Shown here piece by piece: positions 21,001-27,000 of a stretch of DNA of 57,131 bases (positions within the stretch are counted from its first letter, which is position 1; every line of letters begins with the position of its first letter). The stretch lies in assembly GCA_051532055.1 (NCBI GenBank), contig JAOPTX010000013.1:1-57131 (forward strand). Reading direction: 5' to 3'. Made by a program: the position numbers. The DNA is from Fibrobacterales bacterium (GTDB lineage: Bacteria; Fibrobacterota; Fibrobacteria; Fibrobacterales; JAOPTW01).

Positions 21001-24000
21001 CAGTCACGAGTGAAGCTCATAACCACTCCAGTTAAGCTACACTCCTCACATATTGAATCAGTCACATGAGCTTCCATATAAAAATTACTCTTCTCTGGAA
21101 AGAGCAGGGAATAAAACCCTTCAGCACTGAGATAAACAGAGCTGTTTGGGTCCTCTATTTCTGTAACAATTACAGTACTTCCAATAATACGTTCTGTTAG
21201 CTCTTCAGTATAGCTGCTATCATTATTCGCTAAAACGGTATACCGCACGGTATCTGCTCCCGGTATATCGTTACCAGTATAAATACAATCAGTACCATGT
21301 GTAACATACTCACAGGTCGTATCTAATTTGGATTCATAAGCTACTCTACAACTGGCCTCATTGAAATTTTCAGGATCGCAACCAATGTTCCAAGAAATTT
21401 CGTTGGGAAGAGAATCGCACTGAGCCCTATACAATTTCCTAACAAATGAAGAATTTGGTTCTTCGAGCTTACAGTAAGATCTCCGAGAAAGGGTATCAAG
21501 GCTCGTTTTATTGCAGATATAGTCGGTATAAGCCTGAGTCAACAATGCTGTATCATCAATATCATGACACGAAGAGCACTGGAGGGTATCTAACGAAGCT
21601 CTATCTTTGAACGCACAGTCATACTCCCGCTCAATCTGATGTTGAGTAGCCCAATCACAGGCATACAAAACTAGAGTGCTGTCGGGTACTATCCCACTAC
21701 ATTCAGTTACTGGGCACTTAAGATTACTTTCATACTCCTTCTCATCATAAAAGGTGCATTCATACTTACGTTCAAATTCGGGTATGCTGAGCCCGGCACA
21801 ATACTCTTCATCAAAATGGTCATCAAACCTACCACAATAATCATCCCCATCTCTATTCCAATCTTCCTCCCAATCTTCCTCAAAGTCATATAAATATTTG
21901 CATTCACAATCCTCTACATACCCTGGGCAATCATCATCCGTCATACCGTTTTCACAAGTATCGTCGTCATCACTATTCTTTAAAATATCACTACAGTTAC
22001 TCCAATCGTTGATATGGCATTTCTCATCAATATCACCTGCATCATCATAGTAGTCACAATGATAAGTATCTATAAACGTTTCATAATATTTGGTATACCA
22101 TTTAGTTTGTTCAAGGGAACAACTCAAGGTATCGGTTATCTCAGCCAAGTCATCAAAATCCCGACATATCAGTGTATAGGTTAATTCGCGAGATACTTCT
22201 GTAGAGTAGACTCCCTCGCAGGACCGAGATTTTTTATTGTCATCATCAAAGATACACCCCAATGTAATGACACTACAGAATGCTAAAAGGTAAAACGCTT
22301 TCATATGAATGCCATTGATACGTGTGTCTGTTATTAATGTAACTATTCACGTACTATTAATTGAGGCAAATAACTTACTATAGGTAAGGGAATGGCTGCA
22401 TCAGTATCGTTCTCCATAATACCTGGACATACGATTCCACACATTATTAATAATAAGGTACATAGCTTTTTCATAATTCTCTTATTTTTTCCTTACGTGC
22501 AATATACTAACACTTATAGTCCTAACCCTTATCGCACAAACCGTACATAATTATACACATACTGCACATCACCCTGGGCTTCACCAAAGGCAATATAAAC
22601 GCCACCTATTGTTCCTGATTCTACATGAGAAGTACTCGTCCAAAAATACGGATACTGTCCTGGATTCCCTTCAGGGTCATTGTGGAGGCTGGTAACCGCC
22701 AGTCACAAAACCGTACAAAGTACGAGAAATTCGTGCGAAGCACGCAATGAATAACCGTGCAAAGCACAAAAATCAACCACCAAAACCCCCTTTTCAAATT
22801 ATATTAGGACAGTTCAAGGCATTTGACACTGAAGCGTACGGATAGTACGTGAGGGAACAAATAACGCCGAAATGTTCAATATAATTGGAAAAGATGAAGA
22901 TAACACTTATTGAACCGTTTTACTCCGGTTCGCACAAGACCTGGGCCGACCAATTCAAAGAGCACAGCTCCCACGACATAGAGCTTATCACCCTAGAAGG
23001 AAAGTTCTGGAAATGGCGCATGTATGGCGCAAGTGTAACTCTTGCTCAACGGGTTGCCGAGCTCAAAGAACTTCCCGATCTTATTCTGACTACCGACATG
23101 CTGGATGTTGCTGCATTTGCTGCCATTTTGCGACACACACTCCCCTCTACCATACCTATTGTCACCTATTTCCATGAAAACCAACTGGCTTACCCTTGGC
23201 AACCTAATTCTGCCGATAAACAGGAAGGCCGTGATGTTCATTTTGGCATGATGAACTATACTACTATGCTTGCATCTGACGCTGTGCTTTTTAACAGCGA
23301 ATACAACCGGACCTCTTTTTTTGATGAGCTTGAGAAACTGCTGAACAAAATGCCTGACCACAAACACACTGATACATTGCAGAAACAATTAACTAAGACA
23401 TCCATTCTTCCATTGGGCATATCCTTTCAGACACCTCCAAATGATGCTGTGATTCCTAATTATTCAAAAGACAATGGGCCCATTATACTCTGGAATCATC
23501 GACTTGATCATGATAAAAACCCAAAAGATTTCTTTAATGCCCTGGTTGCACTCAAAAAGTCAGCAATTCCTTTTCAACTCGTGTTCCTCGGAGAACAGAC
23601 CAATACACAAAAAAAGAAGTATGGATCATATCTTGATGAACTCAAGTCCCACACATTGTTTTCGGGGTACGCCACCAGAAATGAGTATAACGCTTTTATG
23701 CATAGTGCCCACATACTACCAGTAACCTCTGTACATGATTTTTTTGGCATCAGTATTGCCGAGGCAGTGCATGCAGGCGTTCGTCCATTACTCCCCAAGC
23801 GTCTCTCATATATTGAACTCTATAAGCCCGATGAAAATCCAGACCTTTTTTATGATAATTACGATGACCTTATTATAAAACTAACTGATCTCTGCTCTGC
23901 ATTCAATAATGATACATGGGTAAAGAGAGACTATAGCAAACTAGTTGCGTCTTATGCCTGGAACCGGATGATTACAGTGTATGATGAACTCCTTTGTCAG

Positions 24001-27000
24001 ATGGTATAGGAGTCTTTTGCAATGGAGTTAGTTACCCTACGATCTTCATGTTCGTTTTAAAAGTGCGCTTTTTTATTATGTGGAACCTCGCATCATCCCT
24101 CCTTGACTTAATTTCAAAAAAACGAAAAGAGGTTATCTATGATTAATAGACAACCTCTGAGTAGTGCTTTATAATTTGGATCGATTAGTCGCAATTTTAA
24201 GCGACAAATCTTCTACAGTACATTCTACGAATATTAGTTTATTTGATTAAAAATGAATTTTTGGGCACCTGTTCTATTACAATTATATACCTGAATATTT
24301 GCATGTGATTGTACTGAAGCACCTGCTACATCAAGGCATTTGCGATTACTGAGTGATTGGAGAGAATACACCCCAGCATTGAGTTCAGTAAGTTCCCACT
24401 TCTGCGATATTCCAGGTGTTGAAACACCCCATTGCTGAACATTTGAACTGTGGCCACCCCAGGCCACGTCAAGATGTTTACCTGAATTTTGATTTATAAT
24501 CTCATATACAGATCCACTAACATTTCTTACACTCCATTTTTGAGCACCAGTATTATTACATTCATACTGCTGGACATTTGCTCCATCAAAGAGTGAAGCT
24601 CCATTAACATCAAGACATTTATAGCTGTTTTTATTTCTGATTTCAAAATTACCATCAAGGGCTACAGTGCTTAAAGCATCATTTAATTCCCATACTTGTT
24701 CAATAGTTTGACTACACAACGCAGTTTCAATATTTGCGCCAGAGAAGGAGTTGTCTGAAGTTAAACATTCTGATTCATCAAGCTTCGATTTAATTATGAA
24801 CTTACCAAGCTCAACCTCTTCAATTTTCCATCTACGTTGTGGGTCACCAATAACAGATCCCCATTGTTCAATATTATCTGAGCTACCACTATTTTGAACA
24901 TTCATATGAAAGTTAGAATTTGCATTCACTATTGAGAAGTAACCAGGATCATCAGCAATAGGTTCAATATCCCACCGTTGTGTTTTTGTTTTATTACAAT
25001 GGTATTGTTCTATATTTGCACCTGCGCTTTTACTCGCAGCACCTGCTTCAATACATTTGCCGCTCTCTGAATTTTTAATTTCATATTTACCTGCCGAAAC
25101 AGTAACAGGTTGAGGTGTATCGAACAAACGTACTAAAGGATCACCTACTATAACTTCAGGATAAAAATAAGTCATATCTTTCTCTTGAAAGTCTGGATCT
25201 GTATCTATTCTTTGGTTTGCCCAATCTAAAAATGCGAGACCAACTACTTTATTTTCAGCAAAAGCATCGTATAAAAATACTTCCCGTTGATCACCACCCG
25301 ATGTTTTAGTTGCCCCTATAAGTGCAAGTGAATTACCCCTACCATTATCAGCATACAAATGTGCTCCACCAATATATGAATCTCGGTCACCACCAATGCC
25401 ATTAACCGCTTCAAAAGATCGGGTTGGAGAACATGATTGCAATTGGATAAATAATGGATTAACCGTTTGATCAATCAGGTCATCGCCATTAATGTTGCCT
25501 CTAATTCCGATACCATTTTCATTACCATGACCATTATATATAGCAGTTAGAACATCGCTGTGAGCAAGATCTGCAAGCCAGTTTACATCAGTAGCTGCCA
25601 TCCCTGGAGCTGCTGTAGCATCATCTACTTTTAAATCGAATAACGCAGGATCTCCATACACTGCAGTCATGTACCCAACGTTCGATACAGCATTTGCATC
25701 CGCAACCGTAGAACCAGAACCCAAATGTACAACACCGCGGGTACCCAATTGCATTTGCCCAGAATAGTACCTATGATTTTTATCAAGATATTGTTCCATC
25801 AAGGCATATTCCTCTCCATATTTTGTACTCGTATGTGTTTCAATTCTACCCACAAATATATTTGGCTTCATGATTGATGCATCAATAGTACCTTCAGAAT
25901 TCCCAACGAAATCGAAAAGACCATTATTGTCAAATTGTAGTCCTCCACCCTCTAACCACTTATTGTCATAATAGTCAACGGTTAAATCAGCATAGGCACT
26001 TGCTGGTATTACTTCAATTACTCCATCAGGCCTTTCCCATTCGAGCGTTATACTTGCGCCACCCCAATTTTCATAATAATCCACCTGTAAATCTACAGAC
26101 ACCCCACTGGTAAATTCTATATCATGGGTATAAGTATTACCCCAGCTTCCGTTCCACTCATTAATGACCCGATTATTATTAATATAAACACGAACGCCAT
26201 TATCAGAGGTAACCCTTAAGGTATATTCCCCTGTTTGACTCGGGGTCAATTGCCCTCTCCACTGCCCTGAAAAATAATCAACAGGAACCGAAGGATCTGG
26301 TGAACCTGCTCCCCAATCTTCATTTATTTCAGTTGGAGTATCAGAAAAAAGTAGATTGCGTGATATGCCGCGATCAAACCACGTTGCATCAAAATTCATA
26401 TAGTAGAAATCGGAATGATAGATATCTCTCGGAGTATGCCCTTCGATAAATGATTCCATTCCTGCCTTTGCAAGGTTACCAACAAACACCACTCCGTTCA
26501 GGTCAGTACGATGACTCATAATAAAGCTTTTAAGCTCTTGCGGTGTGTTTATAGGGCTCGTATAAAGCAACACTTCAGGACCGTAAAAATTGTTAATATC
26601 TTGAGCATATCGATCTATGCGAGACTGAAGTGCAGGTTGCGCATACATATCCTCATTAGCAAGTACGATTACTTTGTCGAGCCCTCCTTGAGGGCTCACT
26701 CCAGCCGTGTAGGTATCTATTAGGTTTATCTGACTCCACGCTGTCGAAACAGACAGGGCCAGTAATGCTTTAAAGATTAATTGTTTCATAATTACCTCAT
26801 TTTTTAGTTGTTAATAAGTATTCATAACTTTAAAAAATGAAAAAAATACCAAACCTGAAATATCTGAAACTGATTGAAATAATGTATTCATGGTGAATAC
26901 ATTATGTATGAATGAAATAATTAAAAACCAAATCCAATGCCAATATTAATGTCATAGTCTGGTAATCCTACCCAGACAGGCTTGCTATCAAAACCTGTAT

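Follow-up and report, generated by a model that had tools for sequence, protein, structure and literature searches.

Gene g01140, at positions 22894..24009 (plus strand, stop codon included) of the 57,131-nt window, the whole stretch of DNA from a marine Fibrobacterales bacterium analysed here, codes for a 371-aa protein that is an intact, soluble and cytoplasmic retaining GT-B/GT4 glycosyltransferase of the QTMAN family (formerly DUF3524/GTDC1). That this protein glycosylates queuosine at position 34 (Q34) of tRNA is a proposal that we hold at even chances, in which acceptor, sugar and target tRNA are all inferred. A role in RNA and queuosine metabolism outside animals is supported by the fusion of the family to an RNA methyltransferase in diatoms, by the lack of glycan gene clusters around the gene, by the presence of Tgt in the carriers and by a marked link, in two phyla, to an unusual Tgt. 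The genome-wide survey's note had named the protein a candidate bacterial queuosine glycosyltransferase; the diatom fusion, the absence of a glycan context and Tgt favour the queuosine part of that proposal, whereas mannose and tRNA-Asp, as specifics of the bacterial enzyme, are doubtful.

The founding member of the family is the animal enzyme, which, according to passages of a recent preprint, uses GDP-mannose to mannosylate Q34 of tRNA-Asp and depends on K296 for its activity (10.64898/2026.06.28.735034); two other papers describe sugar-modified queuosine in animals only (PMC10690763, PMC12518689). We found no paper in the searchable literature that tested the QTMAN family in bacteria.

The gene, its product and its leader

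The ORF runs uninterrupted from an ATG at 22894 to the stop codon at 24009 on the plus strand, the opposite strand being full of stops, which confirms that the gene is real. Homologues begin at the same MKI... sequence, which favours this ATG over a TTG situated upstream, at 22885. The product is 81 % identical to its counterpart in the sister species (P0002), its AlphaFold2 model has a pLDDT of 93.1 and a pTM of 0.90, and neither sequence nor model contains a signal peptide or a membrane segment. The Pfam figures given in the survey were reproduced: QTMAN_N (PF12038; residues 2-176, 22897..23421, plus strand) matched over profile positions 1-168 of 168 with 197.5 bits (cut-off 25, E 1.9e-58), and Glycos_transf_1 (PF00534; residues 192-315, 23467..23838, plus strand), the nucleotide-sugar-binding half, with 50.4 bits (cut-off 26.4). 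With both domains in one chain and QTMAN_N complete, the family assignment is sound. QTMAN_N forms the N-terminal, Rossmann-like part of the GT-B fold; this half is presumed, from GT-B enzymes in general, to bind the acceptor.

Eighteen columns were invariant across 40 bacterial sequences, each 31-81 % identical to the query. The invariant residues of QTMAN_N are H14, W39, R42, H94, E95, Q97, Y100, N134 and S135, and in the C-terminal half they include R203 (23500-23502), K208 (23515-23517) and E290 (23761-23763), all on the plus strand. By comparison with GT4 enzymes, we take R203 and K208 to contact the diphosphate and E290 the sugar. When ten eukaryotic fusion proteins were added, W39, R42, H94, E95, Q97 and S135 stayed invariant, as did K208, which lies in an NHRxxxDKxP motif and is a candidate counterpart of K296 of the human enzyme. 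This invariance from bacteria to diatoms points to one conserved chemistry and type of acceptor. A Foldseek search with the model returned GlgM, BshA, MshA, SenB and glycogen synthases with a probability of 1.00; the best matches are retaining GT4/GT5 enzymes (E 1e-13 to 1e-11, TM 0.64-0.72, 11-16 % identity), and the model shows the two Rossmann-like halves, with donor-site R/K and E residues, of a GT-B enzyme. No QTMAN chain was found in the PDB.

The gene is preceded by a conserved leader (22780..22893, plus strand) that can form a long, imperfect hairpin. The 3′ arm of the hairpin (22878-22893) and positions 22790-22805 make up a 16-nt inverted repeat with 94 % complementarity, and this arm spans the GGAAAAG ribosome binding site (22887-22893) as far as the start codon. 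The region 22700-22910 folds with -51.3 kcal/mol (z -5.1), and none of 200 shuffled sequences folded as well. The leader is identical to that of the sister species at 107 of 115 aligned positions, as against 81 % identity for the gene; it is unique within the genome and has no match in Rfam. We regard it as a candidate translational control element.

Distribution, neighbourhood and queuosine genes

The QTMAN family is large in bacteria, with an estimated 6,400 or so stored sequence stretches holding its motifs, a figure comparable in magnitude to the 6,871 bacterial genomes of the survey, and with cultured carriers such as Geomonas diazotrophica Red69, Geothermobacter hydrogeniphilus HR-1 and Portibacter marinus; databases already name bacterial members automatically as "putative QTMAN", and relatives carry the generic JGI label "glycosyltransferase involved in cell wall biosynthesis". 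Within the order, PF12038 was found in two of 157 genomes, this one and another of the same genus, in agreement with the survey (one of 156 other Fibrobacterales). The gene was probably acquired horizontally, because in the two sister genomes it keeps its own leader in differing contexts, and it groups with sequences from Clostridia.

Its neighbours in the window are unrelated, as had been reported, and do not form a polysaccharide gene cluster. The survey had concluded that such isolation gives no support; we read it the opposite way, since genes for tRNA modification usually stand alone and those for polysaccharide glycosyltransferases usually do not. Among 80 loci from many phyla there was no neighbour conserved across phyla; not one of 38 recurrent neighbour clusters was a glycosyltransferase, and an adjacent GT4 gene was seen at a single locus. 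Of 114 directly adjacent genes that were scanned in other genomes, only five were sugar-related. Queuosine genes were also rare as neighbours (one QueD-family gene in the 80 loci), and none of the 14 tRNA genes found at the loci was for Asp.

The genome encodes Tgt, QueA, QueG, QueC, QueD/PTPS and QueF, each found again in our searches, and the GDP-mannose synthase ManC. ARAGORN again identified the two tRNA-Asp(GTC) genes, plus His(GTG) and Asn(GTT), whereas none of the 31 tRNAs in the assembly, which is incomplete, was tRNA-Tyr(GTA); with these six proteins and the Asp, His and Asn GUN tRNAs, the host can make Q34-tRNA. The argument that the survey drew from a complete queuosine pathway is nevertheless weaker than it seemed: the genes are there, but they are near-universal in bacteria, and QueA is missing in 10 of 11 Chloroflexota carriers. 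The genome also contains a 320-aa GluRS paralogue, probably a GluQRS homologue, whose best match was GluQRS with 225 bits, below the cut-off of 256. At least five of 50 other carrier genomes have a clear GluQRS, that is, a short ORF scoring above the cut-off. According to PMC10690763 and PMC12518689, GluQ and manQ share the allylic hydroxyl of Q34 in tRNA-Asp. A GluQRS in this genome would thus imply that the target of the QTMAN-like protein may not be tRNA-Asp, or that both modifications compete.

Tgt was detected in 47 of 50 carrier genomes, the same figure as for the essential control TrmD, and QueA in 45. The apparent exceptions include G001, with QueH, and G028 and G023, with QueG, and Tgt is present in every adequately complete carrier genome. 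Since Tgt and QueA are near-universal in bacteria, this co-occurrence discriminates little. In the Chloroflexota sample, Tgt occurs in 11 of 11 carriers versus 134 of 151 genomes overall, and none of the 17 Tgt-less genomes carries the gene. Additionally, 11 Chloroflexota genomes have a Tgt with a remodelled base pocket, in which Cys158 is replaced by Leu and the position of Val233 is deleted; nine of them carry the gene, versus two of the 140 others (Fisher p 5e-9, uncorrected for kinship), an association that may reflect one or two clades. These two positions separate preQ1-type from queuine-type Tgt, according to PMC3660597. A single Myxococcota-labelled MAG shows the same pairing of gene and variant Tgt. 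The ten Chloroflexota carriers without QueA, nine of which have the remodelled Tgt, also lack a match to QueC or QueG, as does the MAG, itself without QueA; QueH was absent wherever tested among them, and the queuine-salvage protein DUF2419 was found in none of the 11 Chloroflexota carriers. These results indicate that a complete de novo pathway is not required, and that the QueA-less Chloroflexota carriers have no known route to queuosine unless their odd Tgt inserts salvaged queuine.

Our homologue searches returned bacterial and diatom members only. A SpoU_methylase domain was present in 51 of the 57 best-scoring proteins, all the named ones being from diatoms (Cylindrotheca, Nitzschia, Bacillariaceae), and in 46 of those 51 it shared one chain with QTMAN_N and Glycos_transf_1. 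The SpoU part is RlmB/TrmH-like, a family that, to our knowledge, acts on RNA only. A literature search found no paper on these fusions.

Proposed reaction and alternative acceptors

According to our proposal, Tgt, QueA and QueG would first build queuosine at position 34 on the tRNA, and the enzyme would then move a hexose from a nucleotide sugar to a hydroxyl of the cyclopentenediol of Q34 in at least one tRNA with a GUN anticodon. By analogy with animal QTMAN the donor would be GDP-mannose, which the genome can make. The C-terminal half would hold the nucleotide sugar via R203, K208 and E290, whereas the W39-x-x-R42 and H94-E95-x-Q97 motifs of the N-terminal half would hold the acceptor in the cleft between both halves. 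The anomeric configuration would be retained on transfer, giving an alpha linkage.

Rather unlikely, in our estimation, is that the bacterial members of the family use a soluble acceptor other than RNA, for example a small metabolite, a precursor of a compatible solute or thiol, or a protein, and that the scaffold was put to use on tRNA only later, in animals and diatoms. GT4 enzymes switch acceptor readily, and the closest folds (GlgM, BshA, MshA, SenB and the sucrose-phosphate and trehalose synthases) take small soluble acceptors; the protein contains no RNA-binding domain and has an acidic to neutral pI (family median 6.2), and ten of the 11 Chloroflexota carriers lack de novo queuosine genes. 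Also in line with this alternative are a gene for a GH38 alpha-mannosidase situated directly upstream, on the same strand, at one locus (L078), and a QTMAN-like protein fused to an M20 peptidase (P0270). However, bacterial proteins and the diatom RNA-methyltransferase fusions have the same invariant residues on the acceptor side, which speaks against a switch of acceptor; no gene for a metabolic partner is conserved beside the gene in the 80 loci, and, among adequately complete genomes, the gene never occurs in one without Tgt.

The enzyme could also act in the field of queuosine in a way unlike animal QTMAN: the sugar or the hydroxyl could differ, the target could be a different GUN tRNA (Tyr, His, Asn), or the acceptor could be the base that the variant Tgt inserts, or queuine or queuosine in free form instead of tRNA. 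Taken separately this is improbable, although it refines the proposal of a Q34 glycosyltransferase, whose probability already includes part of it. Where GluQRS co-occurs, the allylic hydroxyl of Q34 in tRNA-Asp becomes a contested site, and the strong tie to Tgt-only genomes with the altered Cys158 and Val233 positions points in the same direction; nothing specific speaks against it. Passages of PMC11705514 describe manQ on tRNA-Tyr in mosquito, so even within animals the target is not always the same tRNA. A role in cell envelope or exopolysaccharide synthesis, in turn, is suggested by the generic JGI names and by a weak similarity of the C-terminal half to EPS glycosyltransferases in NCBIfam (HpsP, 40 bits, cut-off 550). 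Nevertheless, these matches span only the shared nucleotide-sugar half, far below their cut-offs, the protein lacks export or membrane signals, and there is no polysaccharide cluster in the window or at the 80 other loci, so that we disfavour this role as highly improbable.

Implications and comparison with known systems

Returning to a Q34 glycosyltransferase, we can tentatively advance, as a single joint reading that we consider possible, that glycosylated queuosine did not arise in animals: Q34 would receive its sugar from an enzyme family widespread in bacteria, and animals and diatoms would have inherited the enzyme from bacteria or acquired it from them. As part of it, the Chloroflexota and the Myxococcota-labelled MAG without de novo genes would use variant Tgt and glycosyltransferase as a eukaryote-like module that salvages queuine, inserts it and glycosylates it, and the Fibrobacterales gene would be a regulated, horizontally acquired copy with a leader that sequesters its ribosome binding site, whose product may compete with GluQRS for tRNA-Asp. 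If the bacterial enzymes do glycosylate queuosine, thousands of bacterial species would possess a modification so far regarded as confined to animals and would provide genetically tractable models for glyco-queuosine, whose function is still unclear, and QTMAN would be bacterial in origin. Carriers that also have GluQRS would show what decides, in bacteria, which of two groups is attached to the same hydroxyl, and the Tgt-only lineages would reveal a new logic of queuine salvage in bacteria. Conversely, if the acceptor is not RNA, the automatic name "tRNA-queuosine alpha-mannosyltransferase" is wrong on thousands of bacterial entries and needs correcting.

BshA, MshA and GlgM share with the 371-aa protein the GT-B fold and, probably, the retaining mechanism, but they are only 11-16 % identical to it, lack the signature motifs of QTMAN_N and act on small molecules. 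GluQRS (YadB) resembles the proposed enzyme in acting after queuosine formation on the cyclopentenediol of Q34; its fold is unrelated, being a paralogue of the GluRS catalytic domain, and it adds a glutamate ester instead of a sugar. Since some carriers have both genes, they are not simple alternatives. The diatom fusions (for example P0298 from Cylindrotheca closterium and P0303 from Nitzschia inconspicua) are 26-33 % identical to the protein in their glycosyltransferase part and share with it W39, R42, H94, E95, Q97, S135, R203, K208 and E290; they differ in a linker of ca. 300 residues and a C-terminal RlmB/TrmH-like RNA 2′-O-methyltransferase domain, and form their own long branch in a quick tree. 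Animal QTMAN (GTDC1) differs from the protein in length, the human enzyme being about 90 residues longer, and the host of the protein, unlike those of the animal enzyme, makes queuosine de novo instead of salvaging queuine and probably has GluQRS as a second enzyme acting on the same hydroxyl. Nevertheless, both share the QTMAN_N and Glycos_transf_1 architecture over their whole length, with ca. 31 % identity from the Swiss-Prot figures of the survey (Drosophila, 31.4 %, E 2.8e-40), the R/K/E donor-site residues of GT4 enzymes are kept, and a queuosine-bearing tRNA and a source of GDP-mannose would be available in the same cell.

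The gene, its product and the PF12038 family

The gene proposed by the genome-wide survey's note as a bacterial homologue of animal QTMAN is confirmed and intact: positions 22894–24009 (+) form an unbroken frame of 371 codons, and the opposite strand is closed to translation. The likely start is the ATG at 22894, not the TTG at 22885, because homologues share an N-terminal MK(I/L)... with the window protein and because GGAAAAG (22887–22893) directly precedes this ATG. Both domains ascribed to the product were recovered with Pfam, QTMAN_N (PF12038) scoring 197.5 bits over residues 2–176, with the entire 168-position profile covered, and Glycos_transf_1 scoring 50.4 bits over residues 192–315; no NCBIfam model attains its cut-off on the 371-aa protein. 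A search of the PDB found no solved structure related to it by sequence, and no QTMAN chain. An AlphaFold2 model computed with 40 family members as input reached a pLDDT of 93.1 and a pTM of 0.90. The pI is uninformative as a hint of RNA binding (6.0, family median 6.2). In the metatranscriptome of the probable source sample, a single contig of 177 nt matched the gene, at 23136–23312, with a depth of 4.5 and no differences, leaving the remainder of the gene uncovered; DNA can be present in RNA libraries, so this contig need not stem from a transcript.

The PF12038/QTMAN family has many bacterial members and is strongly conserved. An exhaustive search returned 744 clusters (50% identity) at E ≤ 1e-30, and from a scan in which each species was represented by a single genome we estimate ca. 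6,400 stretches with family motifs. Cultured carriers include Geomonas diazotrophica Red69, Geothermobacter hydrogeniphilus HR-1 and Portibacter marinus 10MBP4-2-1. The best 80 loci are from Bacillota, Thermodesulfobacteriota, Bacteroidota, Balneolota, Fidelibacterota, Bdellovibrionota, Verrucomicrobiota, Chloroflexota, Myxococcota, Planctomycetota, Acidobacteriota and KSB1. Within its own order the gene is as rare as had been stated, with PF12038 in 2 of 157 genomes, those of the window and of a congener. Among 40 sequences with 31–81% identity to the window protein there are 18 invariant columns (H14, W39, R42, H94, E95, Q97, Y100, N134, S135, R203, K208, P210, Y265, F284, G285, E290, P298 and P301); R203, K208 and E290 presumably match the donor-site residues of GT4 enzymes, and we placed the others in the family-specific N-terminal half. 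One relative of 785 aa (P0270), a single instance, carries an M20/M28 peptidase domain N-terminal to a complete QTMAN_N-GT1 unit.

Databases name these proteins 'DUF3524 domain-containing protein', give them a generic cell-wall label, or call them automatically 'tRNA-queuosine alpha-mannosyltransferase', so the animal name has already propagated to bacteria. Animal QTMAN was absent from the matches listed in our homologue searches, which comprised only bacterial and diatom members. The literature searched, to which the founding paper (Zhao et al., Cell 2023) does not belong, yielded, judging by titles, abstracts or passages, no treatment of bacterial QTMAN (GTDC1) homologues, no paper on DUF3524, and nothing relevant on queuosine, queuine salvage and glycosyltransferases in Chloroflexi.

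Origin of the gene and its upstream region

In a quick maximum-likelihood tree (IQ-TREE, 80 rows, midpoint root), the window protein, its congener and one metagenomic relative were nested in a group of Bacillota (Clostridia), with SH-aLRT supports of 93–99%. Conservation with the sister genome at the DNA level is restricted to the gene and ca. 115 nt upstream of it, and none of 11 neighbouring window proteins occurs within 7 kb of the sister's copy. This leader (22780–22893, +) is identical to that of the sister at 107 of 115 aligned positions, vs. 81% identity for the gene, and is predicted to form a long hairpin (z −5.1), with its 3′ arm spanning and so sequestering the ribosome-binding site. 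Its sequence is unique in the genome, and Rfam had no match to 22250–24300 at E ≤ 1, hence no known preQ1 riboswitch. The Clostridia grouping, the differing context in the sister and the conserved leader together suggest that the gene was acquired horizontally as a unit that includes a putative translational control element. As a sign of transfer, its base composition deviates only mildly (GC 42.1% vs. 39.7% in the genome; GC3 0.42 vs. 0.27–0.37 in the neighbours). A scan for sigma-70 promoters was uninformative (5 sites vs. 5.8 expected).

Further upstream, ca. 125–180 nt from the start codon, three short hairpin palindromes of the form CGT(A/G)C-NNN(N)-G(C/T)ACG follow one another at 22711–22769. 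They may be sites where a protein binds or elements resembling terminators, and three of a similar kind occur in the sister genome (CCGTGCAACAGCACG). In the source sample, one DNA contig leaves the window at 22780 and continues with the upstream sequence of the sister genome, indicating that the sample also contained another strain or the sister species.

Queuosine machinery and Tgt type in carriers

The survey's note had argued from a complete queuosine pathway. Tgt, QueA, QueG, QueC, QueF and QueD, as well as the two tRNA-Asp(GTC) genes, were indeed all found in the genome of the window (G000, 94% complete in 181 contigs), in which a mannose-1-phosphate guanylyltransferase also scores above the curated cut-off. 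Among 50 other genomes carrying a PF12038 gene, corresponding to 50 of the 80 loci and picked for longer contigs, Tgt was present in 47 and QueA in 45. The essential control TrmD was likewise found in 47, so that Tgt already reaches the maximum that MAG incompleteness allows; the carriers without Tgt or QueA include one with two QueH genes (G001) and two with QueG (G028, G023). Queuosine genes are near-universal in bacteria, and this co-occurrence is therefore consistent with a queuosine-related role but weak.

Seven of these 50 carriers, of Desulfuromonadales and Bdellovibrionota type (G005, G008, G018, G020, G033, G040 and G044; loci L108–L121), have two full-length Tgt genes, one adjoining queA and the second standing alone, with 44–53% identity in the six comparable pairs. 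The second copy reads GGVSVGE, not GGLSVGE, in all six copies read (that of G040 excluded). As a link to the glycosyltransferase this paralogue was discarded: five of the six have a canonical pocket except for Leu231 to Val, and no link was established.

G000 also encodes a 320-aa GluRS paralogue (C7:13120–13923; locus L006, 1432–2394, − strand) whose best matches are GluQRS models, with 225 bits against a cut-off of 256; it is a probable tRNA glutamyl-Q34 synthetase. GluQRS above the cut-off occurred as a short ORF in five of the 50 carriers, and ca. seven more had short sub-threshold paralogues. As described in the respective papers, glutamyl-queuosine is an alpha-ester on the allylic hydroxyl in tRNA-Asp (PMC10690763), and mannosyl-queuosine bears its mannose on the allylic 3-hydroxyl, also in tRNA-Asp (PMC12518689). 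GluQRS and the bacterial glycosyltransferase would compete, unless the latter takes another tRNA or hydroxyl. In the mosquito, tRNA-Tyr bears mannosyl-queuosine (PMC11705514, which gives m/z 572.22 for mannosyl- and galactosyl-queuosine), so that even animals do not share a single target tRNA.

A closer association with Tgt emerged from 151 genomes of Chloroflexota (at least 90% completeness requested; G076, flagged as unpublished, enters as one PF12038-negative row only), which included 11 with PF12038, 134 with Tgt, 112 with QueA and 38 with Q_salvage. The glycosyltransferase gene was found in 10 of 22 genomes with Tgt and no QueA, in 1 of 112 with both and in none of 17 lacking Tgt (Fisher's p 5e-9, a value that ignores kinship). 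QueC, QueG and DUF2419 had no match in any of the 10 QueA-negative carriers. Since the gene is kept without the de novo pathway, a complete pathway is not required, which weakens the original argument from its presence.

The Tgt of 9 of these 10 carriers has a remodelled base pocket. The variant passes the Tgt equivalog model (422–457 bits vs. 306.75) and differs by GGLSVGE to GG-SLG(A/G)(N/D)K, FDEC to FDEL and an insertion of ca. 27 residues; aligned to the Z. mobilis enzyme, Cys158 is replaced by Leu and the position of Val233 is deleted. According to PMC3660597, the change of Cys158/Val233 to Val/Gly separates queuine-inserting eukaryotic from preQ1-inserting bacterial Tgt. The variant is found in genomes lacking QueA, QueC and QueG; it looks built for a bulkier base and may be a bacterial Tgt of the queuine type or for a novel base. 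It occurs in 11 genomes of the sample (G074, G114, G123, G132, G150, G159, G175, G191, G199, G086 and G061; loci L090–L098, L101 and L102), 9 of which have the glycosyltransferase gene, vs. 2 of the 140 others. A Myxococcota-labelled MAG that also carries the gene (G047, L124) has a similar variant, with GIGG-DLGQDK and an insertion, and Tgt alone, as QueA, QueC, QueG and QueH were not found in it. The glycosyltransferase gene follows Tgt, and especially the variant Tgt.

A 'eukaryote-like triad' with DUF2419/Q_salvage was rejected, none of the 11 Chloroflexota carriers being among the 38 genomes with this domain. In four other Chloroflexota (G057 C13, G062 C27, G087 C34 and G101 C88), Q_salvage lies ca. 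0.4–0.6 kb from a Tgt-like gene matching only profile positions ca. 92–355; the pair resembles a distinct cluster for queuine salvage, and the QTMAN-like carriers lack it.

Genomic context, diatom fusions and the acceptor

The gene had been described as standing among unrelated genes, and in the window so it does. Its neighbours in the window are proteins without a Pfam match, a PA14/ricin-lectin protein, TonB, a TonB-dependent receptor and a histidine kinase. The flanks (14080–22304 and 24234–26789) hold several large ORFs, some Cys/Asp/Glu-rich and with signal-like N-termini; the 851-aa PA14 and ricin-type lectin protein is the sole one matched by Pfam, and the sister species has no counterpart of any of them near its copy. 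No neighbour is conserved across phyla at the 80 loci from other genomes, the commonest being an alpha/beta hydrolase directly downstream at 10 of them. Genes for translation or RNA occur as neighbours, namely SmpB (four related loci), TyrRS, ProRS, an RsmB/F-type methyltransferase and, once each, a QueD-family gene and a DUF1599 protein; the QueD-family (PTPS) gene adjoins the glycosyltransferase gene in a Bacteroidia MAG (L036, 7365–7784). The 14 tRNA genes at the 80 loci include none for Asp and show no pattern, and the window was found to contain none.

Sugar-related genes made up 5 of 114 immediate neighbours scanned: a GT4, a DegT aminotransferase, a GH38 alpha-mannosidase, a glucuronate isomerase and an undecaprenyl-diphosphate synthase. 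In a Myxococcota-labelled MAG (L078, 4768–7980), the alpha-mannosidase gene immediately precedes the glycosyltransferase gene and has its orientation; like the QueD-family gene, it is a suggestive neighbour seen once. No glycosyltransferase figures among the 38 clusters of recurrent neighbours. Scattered stand-alone genes are usual for tRNA modification, unlike those for envelope glycosyltransferases, and the PF12038 genes fit the former pattern and not the latter; a role in envelope glycans is very improbable.

The nature of the acceptor is addressed by evidence that is independent of animal biochemistry. A search for longer relatives yielded one protein with a SpoU_methylase domain C-terminal to the glycosyltransferase and, with this fusion as query, SpoU_methylase was present in 51 of the 57 best-scoring proteins (P0271–P0327), 46 of which have QTMAN_N, GT1 and SpoU_methylase on one chain. 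The fusion is thus a regular architecture, not a single case, and no description of it was found in the literature searched. Where named, the sources are diatoms (Cylindrotheca, Nitzschia and Bacillariaceae; e.g., P0298 and P0303), and the fusions form their own clade in the quick tree. Their C-terminal methylase is RlmB/TrmH-like, a family that to our knowledge consists solely of RNA 2′-O-methyltransferases, which argues that the glycosyltransferase half acts on RNA too. Residues W39, R42, H94, E95, Q97, S135, R203, K208 and E290 are kept in the fusions, and the unchanged acceptor-side residues argue for the same kind of acceptor in the bacterial and diatom enzymes.

A soluble acceptor other than RNA would agree with the predicted fold, as the closest solved structures are retaining GT-B enzymes of GT4/GT5 acting on soluble acceptors (GlgM, BshA, MshA, SenB and the sucrose-phosphate, trehalose and glycogen synthases; 11–16% identity). 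Set against the methyltransferase fusions, we consider such an acceptor rather unlikely. Some other queuosine-related acceptor would share the association with Tgt, and we hold it to be decidedly unlikely, if still well ahead of an envelope glycan. That the window protein glycosylates Q34 of a tRNA has, in our judgement, about an even chance. The queuosine-glycosyltransferase reading of the survey's note is plausible, and for the family as a whole it gains some strength from the fusion, the context and the association with Tgt; its specifics, mannose as the sugar and tRNA-Asp as the target, are uncertain in view of GluQRS. Animals combine salvage, insertion and glycosylation, and the occurrence of the gene with the variant Tgt resembles the same arrangement.
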